From positions 659 through 64,658 of the forward strand of contig JBKPCO010000020.1 of assembly GCA_046727415.1 (NCBI GenBank): a stretch of 64,000 nt of DNA, written 5' to 3'. Of the stretch, positions 15,483 to 23,336 are shown piece by piece (the first letter of the stretch is position 1; each line of letters starts with the position of its first letter). This DNA comes from Candidatus Methylomirabilota bacterium. GTDB lineage: Bacteria > Methylomirabilota > Methylomirabilia > Rokubacteriales > CSP1-6. Under the pieces are notes generated by a model that had not been told where the DNA came from, did not search any database, and worked only from the letters and a program-made list of their open reading frames with translations. The position numbers were made by a program, and so were the translations under genes.

Positions 15483-16880
15483 TCAGGCCGGCGTGATATT
15501 GGCGTTGGCGCGGAACAGGTTCGTCGGGTCGTACACCGCCTTCAGCTCGCGCAGCCGGGCGTAGTTCGCCCCGAACGACGCGCGGACCTTCTCCGGCCGG
15601 TCATCGGCGGCCAGATGGTTGACGTACGCGCTGCCCTGCAGGTGCGGCTCCAGCCGCTCCCAGAGCTTCCGAACCCACGCGATGTGCTGCGGAGACTGAG
15701 CGGCGTCCGTCCACTGCGCGATAGCGTCGAAGTCCCACTGGGGCCGCCGCGCGGCGAACGCCGTGGCGGTCGGCGAGACGCGGGTCGCCGCGCCGTGCAC
15801 GTTGAAGAAGAGCAACGCGCTCATGGGTGAGCTGAAGCCCGCCGCGCCTTCGACCAGCGCGTCGATGAGCCCGTCCGAGAGCTGTTCCGTGAAGGCCGAC
15901 CGCCAGTAGCGGTGCAGGCCGTGCACCGCGTTGGGATCGTCCAGCATGGTCTGGCGCGCCTTGTACGGTACCGGCCCGACGAGATCGGCGATCGGCTTGC
16001 CGAACTGACGCGCGGGCGCCAGGACCTTCACGCCCTCCTCGATCGGCCCGTTGTAGCCGAGGATCAGCGCTGAGGCCGGTTTGCCGTCGGGCGCGGTGAG
16101 AAGGGCGGTGTAGGCCTCCGCCTCGTCGGGAAGCGTCTGGCAGAAATCGCGATAGAAGCGGAGCACCTCGCGCGCCTGATCGAGCGGATACAGCACGAGC
16201 CCGCCCAGGACCTGCGTGACCGGATGCAGGCGGTATTCGAATGACGTGACGACGCCAAAGTTGCCGCCGCCGCCCCGCAGCGCCCAGAAGAGATCCGGGT
16301 TGTCCGTCGCGCTGGCCTTGCGAAGCTGCCCGTCGGCTGTCACGACGTCGACGGAGATCAGGTTGTCGATAGTGAGCCCGTGCTTGCCCATGAGCCAGCC
16401 GAGGCCGCCGCCCAGGGTGAGCCCGGCGATGCCCGTATTGGAAACGGTGCCGCCCGTCGTGGCGAGGCCGAACGCCTGGGTTTCGTGATCGAGCTCGCGC
16501 CAGAGCACGCCGCCCTCGGCCCGTACGGTGCGGGCGCCCGGGTCGACCCGGATGCCTTTCATCGCCGACAGGTCGAGGACCAGACCACCGTCGTTGGTGC
16601 CGTAGCCCGGCGCGCTGTGGCCGCCCCCGCGCAAGGCCAGCGCCAGATGGTTGGTTCGGGCGAAGTTGACGGCCTGTTGCACGTCGGCAGCACCGGTCGC
16701 GCGCACGATGAGGGCGGGACGACGATCGACGTTGGCGTTCCACACGCGACGCGCCGCCTCGTAGCCGGCGTGATCGCTTCCGATCAGCTCGCCACGGAGC
16801 GCGCTTCGGAGACCGTCGACGTCGTCGGTCCCAAGGTTGATACCGGTTCCATCTGCGGTCACTGCGGCGACATTAGCCAT
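15483..16880 (-). CDS. FAD-linked oxidase (PCMH/BBE-like)
   Basis: Start MANVAAVT with a GAGGTGA RBS. ALRGGGHSAPGY FAD-binding motif and a C-terminal BBE-like YVNH...LRELKAVYDPTNLFRANANI. Confidence 0.85.
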   Translation of the reverse strand: MANVAAVTADGTGINLGTDDVDGLRSALRGELIGSDHAGYEAARRVWNANVDRRPALIVRATGAADVQQAVNFARTNHLALALRGGGHSAPGYGTNDGGLVLDLSAMKGIRVDPGARTVRAEGGVLWRELDHETQAFGLATTGGTVSNTGIAGLTLGGGLGWLMGKHGLTIDNLISVDVVTADGQLRKASATDNPDLFWALRGGGGNFGVVTSFEYRLHPVTQVLGGLVLYPLDQAREVLRFYRDFCQTLPDEAEAYTALLTAPDGKPASALILGYNGPIEEGVKVLAPARQFGKPIADLVGPVPYKARQTMLDDPNAVHGLHRYWRSAFTEQLSDGLIDALVEGAAGFSSPMSALLFFNVHGAATRVSPTATAFAARRPQWDFDAIAQWTDAAQSPQHIAWVRKLWERLEPHLQGSAYVNHLAADDRPEKVRASFGANYARLRELKAVYDPTNLFRANANITPA

Positions 16881-17087
16881 GAGGTCACCTCGGGCTCTCC
16901 GTGGAATGTGCTCGTTCTGCGCATTCAACATTCATACCGCCGAAGATGAGGGAGGGAATCGTGTGGATTCATCTGCCCTCCGGCGCCTCGCCATCCTCCG
17001 CCTTCGCATCAGCGCGGGCAGGACGCCACGGAGCCTCGACGGCGATTCGGGCAAAAGACCCGATCAGGAAATGTCGACGGTGTGTCT

Positions 17088-18038
17088 TCAGAGCGCGACG
17101 CGGTAGCGCTCGGGGTCCTGATCGAACATCTCCTTGCAATGGCGGCAGCAGAAGTACATCGTGCGTCCGGAGAACTCCGAACGGAACTTCGCGGTCGCGC
17201 TGTCGACCATCATGCCGCAGATCGGGTCCCTGGACTCGATGCGGACCGCAGCTGCAGCCGCGGGCGCCGGCTCCGCCTGCGCACCCAGCGCCTTCTCGCT
17301 GCGGCGATGCTGGATGATCTCGGCGAGGATGCTCACGGCAATCTCTTCGGGGGTGACCGCACCGATGTCGAGCCCAGCCGGCGCCTTGAGTCGGCCGAAT
17401 CGGTCAGGCGAGGTGCCGCGCTGCTTCACCCGCTCGACGATCATCGAGGCGCGGCGCCGGCTTGCGACCAGGCTGACGTAACCGGCGTCGGTCTCGAGCA
17501 CGCGTAAGAGCGCGTCCTCGTCGGTGTCGGCGTGGGTGGCGACGACGACGGAGGCGCGACGGTCGAGACGGAGCTCGGCGAGCTGCGTCGTCTGCGCGTC
17601 TTCTGAGAGTGTCGAGACCGCGAAGCCGGCGACGGCTCCGAGGGCGGCGAGGCTCTCGACGACCGGTCCTTGGCCGACGAGCACGAGCTGCGGCTTCGGG
17701 AGATACGGCTCCACATAGATCTCCAGCGTGCCACCGCTGTGGCACGTCATGCCGTATTCGACCATGCCTTCCGTCCGGCCGGGCGTACGCGCGCCCTCCC
17801 CGTAGAGCCCGATGAGACGTGGGCGCCCGTCACGGAGCGCGCTGAGGGCCTCGCGGACGACCACGGGCTCGGCGCAGGCGCCGCCGACCCATCCCCGCAC
17901 GCTGCCGTTCTCACGGATCAGGACCTTCGCGCCGGGCTTCGCCGAGGTCGGCGCCTCGCAGCGAACGACCGTAGCCAGCGCAAACGCCTCGCCGCGCTGC
18001 TGCAGATCGGCCGCGAGCGCTAGGAGCTCCTCGTTCAA
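17088..18038 (-). CDS. XdhC/CoxI-family molybdoenzyme maturation factor with C-terminal YHS (TRASH-type) metal-binding domain
   Basis: TTG start overlaps the coxL TGA (TTGA). FALATVVRCEAPTSAKPGAKVLI is the XdhC_CoxI N-domain and LVLVGQGPVVESLA the Rossmann-like C-domain. The last ~45 aa, DPICGMMVDSATAKFRSEFSGRTMYFCCRHCKEMFDQDPERY, form the YHS motif. Confidence 0.8.
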   Translation of the reverse strand: MNEELLALAADLQQRGEAFALATVVRCEAPTSAKPGAKVLIRENGSVRGWVGGACAEPVVVREALSALRDGRPRLIGLYGEGARTPGRTEGMVEYGMTCHSGGTLEIYVEPYLPKPQLVLVGQGPVVESLAALGAVAGFAVSTLSEDAQTTQLAELRLDRRASVVVATHADTDEDALLRVLETDAGYVSLVASRRRASMIVERVKQRGTSPDRFGRLKAPAGLDIGAVTPEEIAVSILAEIIQHRRSEKALGAQAEPAPAAAAAVRIESRDPICGMMVDSATAKFRSEFSGRTMYFCCRHCKEMFDQDPERYRVAL

Positions 18039-20401
18039 TCCTTCACGCCTTTCTCGCGCAGGAGCTTCCACACCTTCGCGGGCGTGATCGGAATGTCGAC
18101 GTGGCGCACGCCAAGATGCCAGAGTGCGTCCACCACCGCGTTCGCGATCGCCGCCGGCGCCCCGACGGTGGCCGATTCGCCCACGCCCTTGGCTCCCAGC
18201 GGGTGATGGGGAGACGGCGTGACCGTGTGACCCGTCTCCCACTTCGGAGTCTCGACTGCCGTGGGCAAGAGATAGTCGATGAAGCTGCCGCCGCGGATGT
18301 TGCCGATCTCGTCGTAGGAGATCTCTTCGAAAAGCGCCGGCGCCAGCCCCATGGTGAGACCGCCGTGGACCTGGCCCTGCACGATCATCGGGTTGATGAT
18401 GTTTCCGCAGTCGTCGATGGCAACGAATCGGCGTACCTTCACCTCGCCCGTGCCGGAATCGATGTCGACCACGCAGATGTAGCTGCCGAACGGGTAGGTG
18501 AGGTTCGGCGGATCGTAGTAGCTGACCGCCTCGAGCCCGGCCTCCATGCCCTGCGGGTGATTGGTGTAGGCGGCGAAGGCGATGTCCTGGATGGTCTTCG
18601 ACTTGCCCGGCACGCCCTTGACCGAGAATTTCCCGGGCTCCCACACGAGGTCGTCCTCGGCCACTTCGAGCAGGTAGGCCGCGATCTTCCGAGCCTTGTC
18701 GCGCACCTTTCGGGCGGCGACCGCGGCGGCGGCGCCGGCGACCGGTGTCGATCGGCTCGCGTAGGTGCCGAGACCGTACGGCGCGGTGTCGGTGTCGCCT
18801 TCCTCCACCTGGATGTCGGTGGCCGGAATGCCGAGCTCTTCGGCGAGAATCTGGGCGTAGGTCGTCTCGTGCCCCTGCCCCTGTGACTTCGTGCCGAACC
18901 GGGCGAGGGCCTTGCCGGTCGGGTGCACGCGGATCTCGCAGCTGTCGAACATCTTGAGGCCGAGGATGTCGAAGTGCTTGGACGGGCCGGCGCCGACGAT
19001 CTCGGTGAAGCTCGAGATGCCGATGCCCATCAGCACGCCGCGCTTGCGCTTCTCGGCCTGCTCGCGCCGCAGGTCGGCGTAGCCGATCGTGTCCATCGCC
19101 TTCTTGAGCGCCCCCGCATAGTTGCCGCTGTCGTATTCCCAGCCGAGGGCCGACTTGTAGGGGAACTGCTCCGGCTTGACGAAGTTCTTCATGCGGAAGT
19201 CGGCCGGGTCGACGCCGAGCTGATGAGCCATCAAATCGACCATGCGCTCGATCGTGTGCACGGCCTCGGTCACGCGGAACGAGCAGCGATAAGCGATGCC
19301 GCCAGGCGGTTTGTTGGTGTAGGCGCCGTCCACTTCGATGTGCGCCGACTTCAGGTCATACGAGCCGGTGCACACGTGGAAGAGGCCCGCGGGGAACTTC
19401 GACGGGTTGGCCGCGGCGTCGGCGTAGCCGTGGTCGGCGATCGTCTTGATCCGGAGCGCGGTGAGCGTGCCGTCCTGCCCGGCGGCCAGCTCGGCGCTGA
19501 TGTGGTAGTCGCGGGCGAACGAGTCGGCCTGGAGGTTCTCCATCCGGTCCTCGATCCACTTCACGGGCTTGCCGGTGAGCACCGACGCCGCGACCGCGAT
19601 GACGTAGCCCGGATAGACCGGCACCTTGCCGCCGAAGCCGCCGCCGATATCCGGAGAGATGATCCGGATCTTGTGCTCGGCCAGGCCGACGTGCCCGGCC
19701 ACCAGCGCGAAGACCGTCCGAATCGCGTGCGGCGCCTGGGTCGTCATCCAGACCGTGAGCTTTTCGTTGACCTTGTCGAAGTGCGCGACGCACCCGCAGG
19801 TCTCGATCGACGCCACGTGAATGCGCGGGAGGTAGATGTCTTCCTTGACCGTCACCGCCGCCTCGCTGAAGGCGCGGTCGGTTGCGCCCTTGTCGCCCCA
19901 TTCCCAGTGCCAGATGTGATTGTCCTTCTTGTCTTTCTTGTCGGTGCGCAGCACGGGCGCACCCGGCTCGAGGGCCTTCTTCGGGTCGACGACCACCGGC
20001 AGGGGCTCGTAATCGACCGACACCGCCGCGGCGCCGTCCGCGGCGGCGTAGCGGCTCGTCGCCAGTACCGCCGCCACTTCCTGCGCCTGGTACATCACCT
20101 TCTCGACCGGCAGCACCATCTGCGTATCCGACATGAGGGTCGGCATCCAGTGCAGGTTGTACTTGGCGAGGTCCTCGCCCGTGATGACGGCGAGCACGCC
20201 GGGGACGGCCAGCGCCTTCGTGCTGTCGATCTTCTTGATCTTCGCGTGGGCGTGCGGACTCCGGACGATGTCGAGGTAGAGCATGCCCGGCAGCTGGACG
20301 TCGTCGACGTACGTGCCCTTGCCGCGGATGAAGCGCGGGTCTTCCTTCCGCTTGAGGGAATGCCCCATGCCCCCGACTTCAGGCGAGGTTCTGAGCGCCA
20401 T
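18035..20401 (-). CDS. coxL: aerobic carbon monoxide dehydrogenase large subunit, form I (Mo-Cu)
   Basis: 788 aa molybdopterin hydroxylase. Active-site loop AYRCSFR is encoded at 19274-19294 (GCT TAT CGC TGC TCG TTC CGC). GGAGG lies 6 nt before the ATG at 20401. Gene order is M-S-L. Confidence 0.9.
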   Translation of the reverse strand: MALRTSPEVGGMGHSLKRKEDPRFIRGKGTYVDDVQLPGMLYLDIVRSPHAHAKIKKIDSTKALAVPGVLAVITGEDLAKYNLHWMPTLMSDTQMVLPVEKVMYQAQEVAAVLATSRYAAADGAAAVSVDYEPLPVVVDPKKALEPGAPVLRTDKKDKKDNHIWHWEWGDKGATDRAFSEAAVTVKEDIYLPRIHVASIETCGCVAHFDKVNEKLTVWMTTQAPHAIRTVFALVAGHVGLAEHKIRIISPDIGGGFGGKVPVYPGYVIAVAASVLTGKPVKWIEDRMENLQADSFARDYHISAELAAGQDGTLTALRIKTIADHGYADAAANPSKFPAGLFHVCTGSYDLKSAHIEVDGAYTNKPPGGIAYRCSFRVTEAVHTIERMVDLMAHQLGVDPADFRMKNFVKPEQFPYKSALGWEYDSGNYAGALKKAMDTIGYADLRREQAEKRKRGVLMGIGISSFTEIVGAGPSKHFDILGLKMFDSCEIRVHPTGKALARFGTKSQGQGHETTYAQILAEELGIPATDIQVEEGDTDTAPYGLGTYASRSTPVAGAAAAVAARKVRDKARKIAAYLLEVAEDDLVWEPGKFSVKGVPGKSKTIQDIAFAAYTNHPQGMEAGLEAVSYYDPPNLTYPFGSYICVVDIDSGTGEVKVRRFVAIDDCGNIINPMIVQGQVHGGLTMGLAPALFEEISYDEIGNIRGGSFIDYLLPTAVETPKWETGHTVTPSPHHPLGAKGVGESATVGAPAAIANAVVDALWHLGVRHVDIPITPAKVWKLLREKGVKD

Positions 20402-20434
20402 CACTTGCCTCCTAAGTACGTCCTGTGGCTCGCA

Positions 20435-20896
20435 CTACCGCAGCCTTGCCGCGGCATGCTGAACGGCCTTGACGATGTTCACGTAGCCGGTGCAGCGGCA
20501 GAGGTTGCCCGAGATGGCCCAGCGGATGTCGTCCTCGCTCGGCGAGGGATTCTTCTTGAGGAAAGCGTAGCTGGTCATCAGCATGCCCGGCGTGCAGTAG
20601 CCGCACTGGAGCCCGTGCTCGGCCATGAAGCCCTCTTGCAGCGGGTGGAGCCTGCCGTTTTGCTCCAGCCCCTCGACCGTCATGAGCTCCTTGCCCTGCG
20701 TCTGGACGGCGAACATCGTGCACGACTTCACGGGCCGGCCGTCCATCAAGATCGTGCAGGCGCCGCAGTGGGTCGTGTCGCAGCCGATGTGGGTGCCGGT
20801 CAGCCGCAGCACGTCGCGGAGCATGTGGACGAGCAGGAGCCGAGGCTCGACGTCGGCCTCGTGCTTCTCGCCGTTGATCGAAAGCTTCACGAGCAT
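20435..20896 (-). CDS. coxS: CO dehydrogenase small subunit, [2Fe-2S]-binding
   Basis: 153 aa. [11 protein letters not shown] and CGYCTPG...CRCTGY are the cluster motifs. Confidence 0.9.
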
Positions 20897-20910
20897 CGTC
20901 GGCTCTCCTT

Positions 20911-20938
20911 CTACACGCTACCGTCTACACGCTACCGT
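20911..20938. repeat. perfect tandem duplication of a 14-nt unit (ctacacgctaccgt x2) in the coxM-coxS spacer
   Basis: Read directly: 20911-20924 and 20925-20938 are identical. Confidence 0.85.
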
Positions 20939-20945
20939 TGCCGCG

Positions 20946-21815
20946 CTATCGCCGGGCGCGCTCGAGGGCCCGGCGCAGAGCGCGGGCCGTCAGCACACGC
21001 ACGAGATCTTTCTTGTACTCCACCGAGCCGCGCAGGTCGGCGGAGGGCTCGGCCGCCTCGGCGGCGAGCTCGGCCGCCCGCTTGATCGTCGCCTCGTCCG
21101 GTGCCTTGCCCTTCAACGCCGCCTCTGCCTTCGTCGCCTTGATGGACGTGAGGCCCACGTTGGTGAGGCCGATGCCAACCTGATCGCAGGCGCCGTTCGC
21201 GGCGAGCGTGAGCTGCACGGCCACCGCGGCCGTCGCGAAGTCGCCGACCTTGCGCTCGAGCTTCAGGTACGCGCCGCCGCTGCGCGCGGCGGGCTGCGGG
21301 ATCCGGATCTCGACGAGGATTTCGTCGGGCTTCAAGCTGGTCTCGAACGGCCCGGTGAAGAACGATCCGATGGCAATCCGCCGCTCGCCCTTCGTGCCGA
21401 TCGCGACGACCTCGGCGCCGAGCGCCAGCATCGTCGCCGGATGGTCGTTGGCCGGATCGCCATGGGCCAGGTTGCCGCCGACGGTGGCGAGGTTGCGTAC
21501 CACCGGATCGGCGATGACCTTCGAGGTGTCGTGGAGCAGGGGATAGCGCGTCCTCATCAGCTCGGACTCTTCCAGCTCCGATTCGCGCGTGAGCGCTCCG
21601 ATCTTAAGAAAGCCGTCAGCCTCACGGATACCCGACAGACCCGGGATTCCGTTGATGTCGACGACGTGCGCCGGGCTGGCGAGCCGGAGCTTCATCAGGG
21701 GGATGAGGCTCTGGCCTCCCGAGAGGATTTTGGCGTCCTCGCCGAGCCTTGCCAGCAGCGCGGTCGCCTCGCCGATCGTGTTCGGCGCGTGATAATCGAA
21801 CGCGGCAGGAATCAT
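20946..21815 (-). CDS. coxM: CO dehydrogenase medium subunit, FAD-binding
   Basis: 289 aa. MIPAAFDYHAPNTIGEA...ILSGGQSLIPLMKLR is the typical CoxM/XdhB FAD-binding domain. Confidence 0.9.
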   Translation of the reverse strand: MIPAAFDYHAPNTIGEATALLARLGEDAKILSGGQSLIPLMKLRLASPAHVVDINGIPGLSGIREADGFLKIGALTRESELEESELMRTRYPLLHDTSKVIADPVVRNLATVGGNLAHGDPANDHPATMLALGAEVVAIGTKGERRIAIGSFFTGPFETSLKPDEILVEIRIPQPAARSGGAYLKLERKVGDFATAAVAVQLTLAANGACDQVGIGLTNVGLTSIKATKAEAALKGKAPDEATIKRAAELAAEAAEPSADLRGSVEYKKDLVRVLTARALRRALERARR

Positions 21816-21841
21816 CGTCGTGGTCTCCTGCGCAGAGGAAT

Positions 21842-21883
21842 CCTCGACCCGTCGCGGAAGATCCCGCCCGCGACGGATCGAGG
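21842..21883. promoter_or_regulatory. 16-nt-arm inverted repeat (1 mismatch) between the upstream MBL gene and coxM
   Basis: cctcgacccgtcgcgg-N10-ccgcgacggatcgagg. Could be a terminator for the MBL gene or an operator in front of coxMSL. Confidence 0.35.
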
Positions 21884-21899
21884 TTGATCAGCGCTGGGC

Positions 21900-23336
21900 T
21901 CAGCGGCCTATCAGCTTGTTCAGCTCCGTGAGCGAAACAATCCGGCTGTGGAGGGGCACGATTTGATCCACCGTCAGGTTCAACCGCTTGATGTTGTCCG
22001 CCAAACCGACCCAGTTCGAGTTCACCGCTGCGGGGGCCGGCGCATTCGCTGCCGGCGGGTTGAACACGTCGGCCTCGATCAGGAGCTTTTCCTTGGGTAA
22101 GTGAAGCATGATGATGCCGCCGTGATGGTTGTTGTCGGCGACCTGGTGTATATCCACCGTTCGGGCCCCGTCGGTCAGTGTGCGCAGAACCCCCACGCCC
22201 TCGACGGTTGCCTTCTTGCCCGACTTGGCGAGCCGATCGGGGTTCACGGTGGACGGCGCGGCCAGCGATTTCTCCAGGAAGGCCCTGTTCGACTCGGGCG
22301 CGAGGATCGTCAGCGGCTCGGCTGCAACCGCTCGTAGACCGCCGGCGTGATCGAAATGATGATGCGTCGCGACGACGTACTTGATCGGCTTGCTCGAGAG
22401 CTTTTTGACCTCGCCCAGCACGGCGGCGGCCCGGTCCTCGTTCAGCGGGCTCTCCACCACGATGAGGTGATCCTTCATCTCGATCACGACGCTGTGGTGG
22501 GTGCCGCCGGTCAAGTGCCAGACCCCGTCGGCGACCATCTGACTCGCCACCCGGGCGTAGGGCGCGGACGCCTGGAGAATCGGGCCGGGGATCGCGATGT
22601 TCACCGCGGCATTCATCTGGACGTCGGTCACGGTGAGGTCGAGGGCAGGGTAGTCGCCGATCGTTTGCTTGATCTTCATCGGAAACTTCACGCCGGCGAA
22701 GTCCTTGTAGTCGGAATAGTTGATCTCGACACGCATGTCGCCCAGTACCGCATTCGGAACCAGGGCAACCACCTTCTCGACAAGGTTCTGACTGGTGACG
22801 GTTGTCCAGATCCGGAAGCGCCCGGGAATCGCGAAGTAGATCGTGTTGCCCTGGACGGTCGCATTGTTCGCCATCGCCAGTTTGATTACGCCGTGAGGCG
22901 TGGTCCAGAGCTGAAGCTGGCGATCGAGCAGCGCGACCGGCGCGGGAGCCGGCGTGTCGCCCATCACGTTCCAGGCGAAGTCGCCGCGTGCCTGGAGGTC
23001 TTGCCGCTGCTCGCCCTGCATCGGCTGGCCGCCGCCGCCGCGCGCCGGGTTCTCCCCCTGCGTGCGCACCAGCTCGTCGCGGATTGCGGCGGTCTCGTAG
23101 CTCACGGAGCGCGTAGAGCTCTTGACGACGAACCGCGGCCACGGCGTCTCCGGCGCATAGTTCTGTCCCACCGCGAAGTTCACACCACTACCAGAGTACT
23201 GGATCGACTTGACGCTGCCGGCGCCCATCGCCTTCGCGATGAGGGCGAGCGCGGCGCGGTTGTCCTGCGCGGATGCGGCGAGCGGTGAAAGGAGCAGCAG
23301 GACGGCCATCAGGGTCACGGTGATGGGTCGGCGCAT
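21900..23336 (-). CDS. secreted two-domain protein with C-terminal MBL-fold hydrolase
   Basis: 478 aa. Signal peptide MRRPITVTLMAVLLLLSPLAASAQ. VVATHHHFDHAGG motif. The ~250-aa N-terminal domain is unassigned. Confidence 0.75.
   Translation of the reverse strand: MRRPITVTLMAVLLLLSPLAASAQDNRAALALIAKAMGAGSVKSIQYSGSGVNFAVGQNYAPETPWPRFVVKSSTRSVSYETAAIRDELVRTQGENPARGGGGQPMQGEQRQDLQARGDFAWNVMGDTPAPAPVALLDRQLQLWTTPHGVIKLAMANNATVQGNTIYFAIPGRFRIWTTVTSQNLVEKVVALVPNAVLGDMRVEINYSDYKDFAGVKFPMKIKQTIGDYPALDLTVTDVQMNAAVNIAIPGPILQASAPYARVASQMVADGVWHLTGGTHHSVVIEMKDHLIVVESPLNEDRAAAVLGEVKKLSSKPIKYVVATHHHFDHAGGLRAVAAEPLTILAPESNRAFLEKSLAAPSTVNPDRLAKSGKKATVEGVGVLRTLTDGARTVDIHQVADNNHHGGIIMLHLPKEKLLIEADVFNPPAANAPAPAAVNSNWVGLADNIKRLNLTVDQIVPLHSRIVSLTELNKLIGR

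Follow-up and report, generated by a model that had tools for sequence, protein, structure and literature searches.

For the route by which copper reaches the buried Mo-S-Cu site of the aerobic carbon monoxide dehydrogenase (CODH), the only model comes from one alphaproteobacterium, and it rests on speculative sequence motifs of the accessory protein CoxF (a phytase motif and RGD-integrin binding). In Oligotropha carboxidovorans, CoxF is a member of the XdhC family with a putative copper site, M107CPSHGTM, and mutants in coxE and coxF produce a copper-free enzyme (Pelzmann 2014, PMC4240915). The requirement of CoxF for copper insertion into apo-CODH is established for O. carboxidovorans only (PMC4240915), and in the Oligotropha model the enzyme on which CoxF acts already holds the molybdenum cofactor (Moco). 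Here, a stretch of 64,000 nucleotides (hereafter the window) from a metagenome-assembled genome (MAG) of a Candidatus Methylomirabilota bacterium (GCA_046727415.1, contig JBKPCO010000020.1) was analyzed, in which the gene following coxL encodes an XdhC-family protein with a C-terminal YHS domain. As judged from its sequence, this gene, designated coxF-YHS, is very probably a CoxF orthologue of a YHS-bearing type that is tied to the form I CODH. For the function of its product, the following explanation is preferred, to which a probability of roughly 60% is assigned: a CoxF-type core carries a folded YHS domain on a flexible, Ala/Pro-rich tether of ~20 residues, it is encoded in the operon of a form I (Mo-S-Cu) enzyme, and its tail handles copper, with CoxD and CoxE not being replaced.

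The first-pass annotation had seen at 17088-18038 an XdhC/CoxI-YHS fusion directly behind a form I coxL, and this was confirmed, the coding strand being the minus strand. The reverse complement of 17088-18038 translates as an open frame of 316 codons without interruption; the plus-strand reading was rejected, as its frame is full of stops. The TTG start of the gene (at 18038) overlaps the TGA stop of coxL (GAT TGA / TTG AAC), and the AYRCSFR loop identifies this coxL as form I. Furthermore, all three domains of the encoded protein (P0001) were found above the Pfam cut-offs, namely XdhC_CoxI with 71.1 bits (cut-off 24.3), XdhC_C with 100.3 bits (cut-off 29.7) and YHS with 47 bits (2.5e-12; curated cut-off 30.3), the last of these lying at C20:17761-17886 in the genome search. 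The features of the gene and of its operon are as follows.

17088..18038, minus strand: coxF-YHS gene (316 aa, P0001), CoxF-type XdhC-family maturation factor with C-terminal YHS domain
17811..18002, minus strand: XdhC_CoxI domain, residues 13-76, with conserved Cys55 (Pfam PF02625, 7e-20)
17730..17750, minus strand: CoxF-type motif M-T-C-H-S-G-G, residues 97-103, corresponding to the putative copper site M107CPSHGTM in Oligotropha CoxF
17316..17687, minus strand: XdhC_C Rossmann-like domain, residues 118-241 (Pfam PF13478, 1.5e-28)
17238..17300, minus strand: Ala/Pro-rich flexible linker, about residues 247-267, with a dip in model confidence and variable among homologues
17103..17228, minus strand: YHS/TRASH-type domain, residues 271-312 (Pfam PF04945), with candidate metal ligands D271, C274, C297 and C301 (plus C298)
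18035..20404, minus strand: coxL, form I CODH large subunit (789 aa, P0002), with the AYRCSFR loop encoded at 19274-19294
20435..20896, minus strand: coxS, [2Fe-2S] small subunit (Pfam Fer2_2 and Fer2)
20946..21815, minus strand: coxM, FAD-binding medium subunit (Pfam FAD_binding_5 and CO_deh_flav_C)

Among the matches listed, all 120 homologues with at least 70% identity to P0001 have the same three-domain architecture, so the fusion is not a product of chance or of a frameshift. By name, these close homologues are proteins of Candidatus Rokuibacteriota/Methylomirabilota. The AlphaFold2 (AF2) model of P0001, based on 92 sequences, has a mean predicted local distance difference test (pLDDT) score of 92.9 and matches the structure 2we8 of the Mycobacterium smegmatis Rv0376c homologue (Foldseek E 1.8e-18). 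Values of 93-97 were obtained for the YHS domain, and between the domains, which score above 90, confidence drops to 66-69 in the linker and to less than 50 at residues 260-265. The linker is rich in Ala and Pro and varies in length and sequence among homologues. A variable linker of low confidence between two confidently modelled domains is as expected for a tether.

Comparison with Oligotropha/Afipia carboxidovorans OM5 places P0001 with CoxF: identity is 40% to OM5 CoxF (tblastn E 1e-48) versus only 27-28% to OM5 CoxI. Both OM5 proteins are encoded in the cox cluster of pHCG3 and have two XdhC domains and no YHS domain. A tree was built from the XdhC-core columns only, with 150 representatives ranked by a profile that includes YHS. 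Therein, CoxF of OM5 and of Aestuariivirga are nested inside a large clade holding the window protein, and the CoxI-like proteins (OM5 CoxI, the second XdhC of Natronorubrum and that of Rokubacteria) form a separate clade with 99% support. In members of the CoxF clade, the second conserved Cys is followed by two inserted residues, resulting in the motif M-T-C-x-S-x-G (MTCHSGG in the window protein), and this insertion is a gap in five of six CoxI-like proteins. Within the clade, C55 is conserved in 147, C99 in 152 and S101 in 143 of 154 proteins.

OM5 CoxF (280 aa; pHCG3, coxMSLDEFG) and the window protein thus have in common the XdhC_CoxI and XdhC_C core, the motif M-x-C-x-S-x-G, a location in a form I cox cluster and the clade. 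Unlike the window protein, OM5 CoxF is devoid of YHS, ending ~35 residues past the Rossmann domain, and its proposed phytase motif RHGQRQS has no counterpart in P0001. Moreover, OM5 coxF comes after coxD-coxE, whereas the window gene directly follows coxL in an operon without coxD and coxE. The two-domain fold and an equivalent of Cys55 are also shared with OM5 CoxI, with the M. smegmatis Rv0376c homologue (2we7/2we8) and with classical XdhC. The CoxI-like paralogues are set apart by their low identity and the lacking insertion, and in the loci examined YHS is consistently missing from the second, CoxI-like XdhC that is encoded beside form II clusters. Since CoxF of O. carboxidovorans also belongs to the XdhC family and has its orthologue in the window gene, the gene is no stand-in for CoxF. 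The earlier view that an XdhC-type factor is used in this operon instead of CoxF therefore fails on identity, tree topology and motif alike.

In order to determine how widespread this architecture is, a profile search of 1.84 billion representatives at 50% identity was performed, yielding 38,137 XdhC-family matches. Among the best 150, which were examined, ~130 have a YHS tail, a share that is biased upward by the inclusion of YHS in the ranking profile. In addition, species-representative genomes were scanned with an alignment of diverse fusions, and 80 loci with 9-kb flanks were obtained from Methylomirabilota, Acidobacteriota, Chloroflexota, Armatimonadota, Bacteroidota, Calditrichia, Verrucomicrobiota and some Proteobacteria. 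An AYRCSFR-type coxL was located within the 9-kb flank in 62 of the 80 cross-phylum loci; of the remaining 18, most are truncated at a contig end or keep coxL fragments or coxD-coxE. The commonest gene order, coxM-S-L-(G)-D-E-[XdhC-YHS], puts the fusion in the coxF slot, as observed for Acidobacteriota, Bacteroidota, Armatimonadota, Chloroflexota (Limnocylindrales), one Acidiferrobacterales MAG and haloarchaea. In the haloarchaeon Natronorubrum bangense the order is coxM-S-L-[XdhC-YHS]-coxD-coxE-...-CoxI-like.

Within the phylum Methylomirabilota, 136 genomes were compared, comprising the MAG of the window and relatives that are at least 90% complete. The fusion was found in 52 genomes and the AYRCSFR-coding DNA pattern in 49, with both being present in 45 and neither in 80; these genomes are kin, and the counts describe a pattern rather than a statistical test. 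Where both occur, they lie on the same contig within 5.3 kb in 44 of 45 cases, and the form I pattern is absent from 80 of the 84 genomes without the fusion. The specific link of the YHS fusion to the form I (copper-type) coxL is hence borne out by 62/80 loci and 45/52 genomes, and the fusion was not equally frequent beside non-copper enzymes. Outside the checked Proteobacteria and Actinobacteria, the YHS-bearing type appears to predominate, in a sample that is biased, and the window copy is an unexceptional representative of it. The literature search found no paper joining XdhC or CoxF with YHS or TRASH, so that this widespread type of CoxF is undescribed in the literature searched, and public annotation names the fusion proteins 'XdhC family protein' or 'xanthine dehydrogenase accessory factor'.

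Conservation within the tail was evaluated for 92 diverse fusions (33-55% identity). C274, C297 and C301 are invariant, D271, P272 and M276 are conserved in at least 90%, and an extra Cys (C298, in F-C-C-x-x-C) is present in 93 of 154 CoxF-clade proteins. D271, C274, C297 and C301 correspond to the one Asp and three Cys that were proposed to bind the metal in the YHS adenylyl cyclase of M. phlei, an enzyme activated by copper (Linder 2015, PMC4626032). The window domain matches PF04945, as do the YHS domains of Cu-ATPases and of this cyclase, and it shares with the latter the Asp plus three Cys, the C-terminal position and a short tether. Unlike these, it is located on a molybdoenzyme maturation factor, and most CoxF versions have the extra Cys; by analogy, its role would be delivery, as opposed to sensing in the cyclase. 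A deviating tail was observed for Deinococcus-type CoxF (L177:11601-12662, Deinococcus sp. AJ005; L070; P0260), where the YHS-like fold is kept (Pfam 32.5 bits in P0260), S-P-V-D replaces D-P-x-C with loss of the first Cys, and one Cys of the Cys-Cys pair is lost. This version may be degenerate or repurposed.

Other tails are found at the same position. In the CoxF orthologue P0175 (GCA_009936275.1), which is 43% identical to OM5 CoxF, an HMA domain (MxCxxC, Pfam 40.9 bits) replaces YHS. HMA is a classic Cu(I) chaperone fold. The corresponding locus (L178:9001-10038, AP019797.1) has the order coxM-S-L(AYRCSFR)-G-D-E-[CoxF-HMA]-MocA, followed by a CoxI-like XdhC gene on the other strand. Eight other CoxF representatives end in Cys-Cys tails, one of them (P0226) being encoded on a contig of only 1.5 kb. 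Further architectures (P0141, P0150, P0181, P0215, P0161, P0123) comprise MocA(NTP_transf_3)-XdhC-YHS, a partial CoxG-XdhC-YHS and XdhC carrying a tandem pair of YHS domains, and XdhC-MocA fusions without YHS were also detected (P0250, P0265). The fusions that involve MocA, a part of CoxG or a double YHS link the family to CODH cofactor assembly.

Thiol-rich metal modules of several kinds thus occupy one position of this chaperone, next to the one member of the enzyme family that depends on copper, and this is regarded as the strongest argument for copper handling. On balance, the sequence comparisons favour a YHS tail that would carry Cu(I) for insertion. The tethered domain would capture cytoplasmic Cu(I). 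The copper would then pass either to the cysteine site in the core of CoxF or straight to the sulfurated Mo centre of apo-CoxMSL that is already folded, and this transfer would complete the [CuSMoO2] cluster. Copper binding and the direction of transfer are inferred, and CoxD and CoxE may act in trans on the form I enzyme.

Several observations weigh against a copper-carrying tail. The metal specificity of YHS/TRASH domains is unsettled, and such domains can be structural or metal-free: the YHS domain of toluene-4-monooxygenase was without metal in the crystal, and in ribosomal protein L24e the TRASH domain contains Cd/Zn. The best-studied CoxF, that of OM5, works without YHS, and the domain is also missing from CoxF of Nonomuraea (Actinobacteria) and of Alphaproteobacteria. 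Given these proteins and the Deinococcus version without the first Cys, the YHS domain is dispensable in some lineages. Furthermore, some Rokubacteria keep an intact coxF-YHS gene although coxMSL is deleted. The domain could instead represent a structural zinc ribbon or a docking or regulatory module, which binds CoxL or CoxE or senses metal and is not the carrier of the enzyme's copper. This would be in line with the structural metal site of L24e and with a PDB sequence search, in which the tail alone gave marginal eL24/TRASH-like best matches (E 0.04) that would fit a TRASH kinship. Moreover, the one biochemically studied YHS domain acts as a sensor, and the Deinococcus clade retains the domain despite the loss of the first Cys. 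However, a purely structural or docking function is considered unlikely in view of the independent swap to HMA at the same position, the Cys-Cys tails of other CoxF orthologues and the almost exclusive association of the fusion with the copper-containing form I enzyme.

Clustering with coxD (MoxR-type AAA+) and coxE (VWA), a feature of coxF in many other lineages, was found neither in the window nor in the MAG. The first-pass annotation had noted that coxD, coxE and coxF are all missing from the window and had proposed a search of the genome. For coxD and coxE this holds: like coxG, they were not found within the 64-kb window; CoxF, by contrast, is present, being the product of the window gene itself. 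The window represents almost all of contig C20 of the MAG, which comprises 4.53 Mb on 242 contigs and is 84% complete. In the MAG, no match to CoxE above the cut-off and no CoxD orthologue were detected (the best tblastn match is a MoxR protein with 27% identity), and two coxG genes reside on contigs other than that of the window.

The absence of coxD and coxE from the MAG coincides with an assembly gap. Every one of the 83 genomes belonging to the same family, fusion-bearing or not, gave VWA_CoxE matches of ~210 bits. Three genomes of the same genus (G054, G055, G056) have a second cluster of the order coxS-coxL(form II, AYRGAGR)-coxM-coxD-coxE-XdhC(CoxI-like), in which CoxD is 55-57% identical to OM5 CoxD and CoxE 34-35% identical to OM5 CoxE. 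The left flank of the G055 locus (L085:2829-11042) matches MAG contig C114 (3603-6382) up to its last base, and the right flank matches contig C111 (1-3874) from its first base on. The intervening 8.2 kb, which hold the 3' end of coxL, coxM, coxD, coxE and xdhC2, have no counterpart anywhere in the MAG. Since the flanks meet the contig ends of C114 and C111, the missing coxD and coxE reflect a gap in assembly or binning, not biology. Their absence from the genome was thus rejected on the basis of family-wide coxE, the loci of relatives and synteny to the contig ends. As a side observation, the coxD genes of G056 (L086:6947-8418) and G054 (L087:5988-7459) are split by an in-frame insertion of ~490 codons, which is located close to the Walker B region. 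According to Pfam, the insertion consists of an intein splicing domain and a LAGLIDADG homing endonuclease; it is absent in G055, and a similar CoxD split occurs in L114 (2445/4320).

The window gene is the single XdhC-family gene of the MAG (the only XdhC_CoxI match), in a genome with 36 MoCoBD_1 matches, equivalent to ~35 large subunits of the xanthine dehydrogenase (XDH) family. This ratio would suit a general XdhC-type chaperone that inserts the molybdopterin cytosine dinucleotide (MCD) form of Moco into many XDH-family enzymes and stands beside coxL by chance. Such a general role is very improbable, considering that a second XdhC is hidden in the assembly gap and that 80/84 Methylomirabilota genomes without the fusion are also without the form I pattern. 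In addition, P0001 scores far below the cut-offs of the NCBIfam XdhC/AOR equivalogs TIGR02964 (37.9 vs 161.6) and NF045664 (125.3 vs 350). As to their active-site loops, one large subunit of the MAG has AYRCSFR (form I) and four have AYRGAGR (form II).

The layout of the window recurs in another phylum, in Thermomicrobium roseum DSM 5159, an experimentally proven CO oxidiser (Islam 2019, PMC6776052). Its megaplasmid (NC_011961.1) encodes an XdhC-YHS protein (WP_143714800.1, annotated only as 'XdhC family protein') that is 43% identical to the window protein, in the same order coxM-S-L(AYRCSFR)-XdhC-YHS and without adjacent coxD and coxE. The loci differ in that T. roseum has an intergenic gap of ~80 nt in place of the start/stop overlap. 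A weak VWA_CoxE match on the megaplasmid was rejected as CoxE, being YhbH. As in Rokubacteriales, Thermomicrobium has a second cluster, coxG-S-L(form II, AYRGAGR)-M-coxD-coxE-XdhC, which was read from Thermomicrobium sp. CFH 73360 and HR28 (L200, L201) as stand-ins for T. roseum DSM 5159. The chromosomal genes trd_1206-1208 (coxGSLM) were labelled type I by Islam 2019 (PMC6776052). In the present loci, the coxG-S-L-M cluster with coxD and coxE has the form II loop AYRGAGR, and the AYRCSFR enzyme is encoded in a separate coxMSL-coxF.YHS operon (L200/L201 vs L184/L183; in T. roseum on the megaplasmid).

The compact layout bears on a further proposal of the first-pass annotation, namely that XdhC-YHS constitutes a streamlined, self-sufficient maturation system which delivers both Moco and copper and makes CoxD and CoxE unnecessary. 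The form I operon of the window, of most Rokubacteriales and of Thermomicrobium indeed consists only of coxM-S-L and the coxF-YHS gene, and T. roseum, with this layout on its megaplasmid, oxidises CO (Islam 2019, PMC6776052). Moreover, the single strong coxE match of Rokubacteria is the same whether or not form I is present, which argues against a coxD/E pair dedicated to form I. However, same-genus genomes encode coxE and a coxD with 55-57% identity to OM5 CoxD beside form II coxSLM, both genes are likewise present in Thermomicrobium, and those missing from the MAG map to the gap between contig ends C114 and C111. Beyond these lineages, CoxF-YHS is encoded directly beside coxD-coxE in most other phyla and, within the same phylum, in the form I clusters of G028, G007 and G093 (families f4/f7, genus g15), so that the YHS tail is no general substitute for CoxD and CoxE. 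A streamlined route is thus not supported and is distinctly improbable, CoxF-YHS sharing a cluster with coxD/E in most lineages and relatives having coxD-coxE elsewhere. All that is left of the idea is a loading of form I without coxD-coxE, a minority reading at long odds. In the compact-operon lineages (Rokubacteriales, Thermomicrobium), the tethered YHS domain would then let CoxF load form I copper without dedicated CoxD and CoxE, and the sole coxD-coxE copy would serve form II; this, too, is doubtful.

Regarding the surroundings of the operon, whose order is coxM-S-L and coxF-YHS, its CoxL is 72.7% identical to CoxL of T. roseum and 61% identical to that of OM5. An unrelated gene for a BBE-type FAD oxidase follows ~150 nt downstream of coxF-YHS, and the upstream neighbour of the operon encodes a protein of the metallo-beta-lactamase (MBL) fold. 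For the minus strand, a consensus scan of window positions 16700-22100 revealed neither a convincing sigma-70-like promoter nor a convincing intrinsic terminator at the borders of the operon. In the coxMSL-deleted relatives, the neighbouring MBL gene and the intact coxF-YHS gene are retained. The deletion was observed in the Rokubacteria AR22 and AR27 loci (L029, L031) and in L036. In an open reading frame of 148 codons (L029:5533-5979), the N-terminal ~48 residues of CoxM are fused to the C-terminal ~95 residues of CoxL, and at L031:4978-5979 the C-terminal 333 residues of CoxL are all that remains of coxMSL.

A large part of the CO that soil bacteria remove from the atmosphere is taken up through CODH, and the enzyme also attracts interest in syngas biotechnology, in which its heterologous expression is limited by maturation. 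If true, loading without coxD/E would amount to a simplified Mo-S-Cu assembly and would greatly facilitate the production of active enzyme in heterologous hosts. YHS-bearing CoxF is found in cultured CO oxidisers, e.g., Thermomicrobium and Natronorubrum, and its tail represents a small, soluble and mutable module for testing. The window contributes the correction of a tempting false negative, the apparent lack of coxD and coxE, to an assembly artefact, as well as a two-cluster layout in common with Thermomicrobium and relatives in which coxF-YHS survives the deletion of coxMSL. With YHS tails in many phyla, HMA in one lineage and Cys-Cys tails in others, comparative genomics provides independent support for CoxF as a copper-handling component of CODH maturation.

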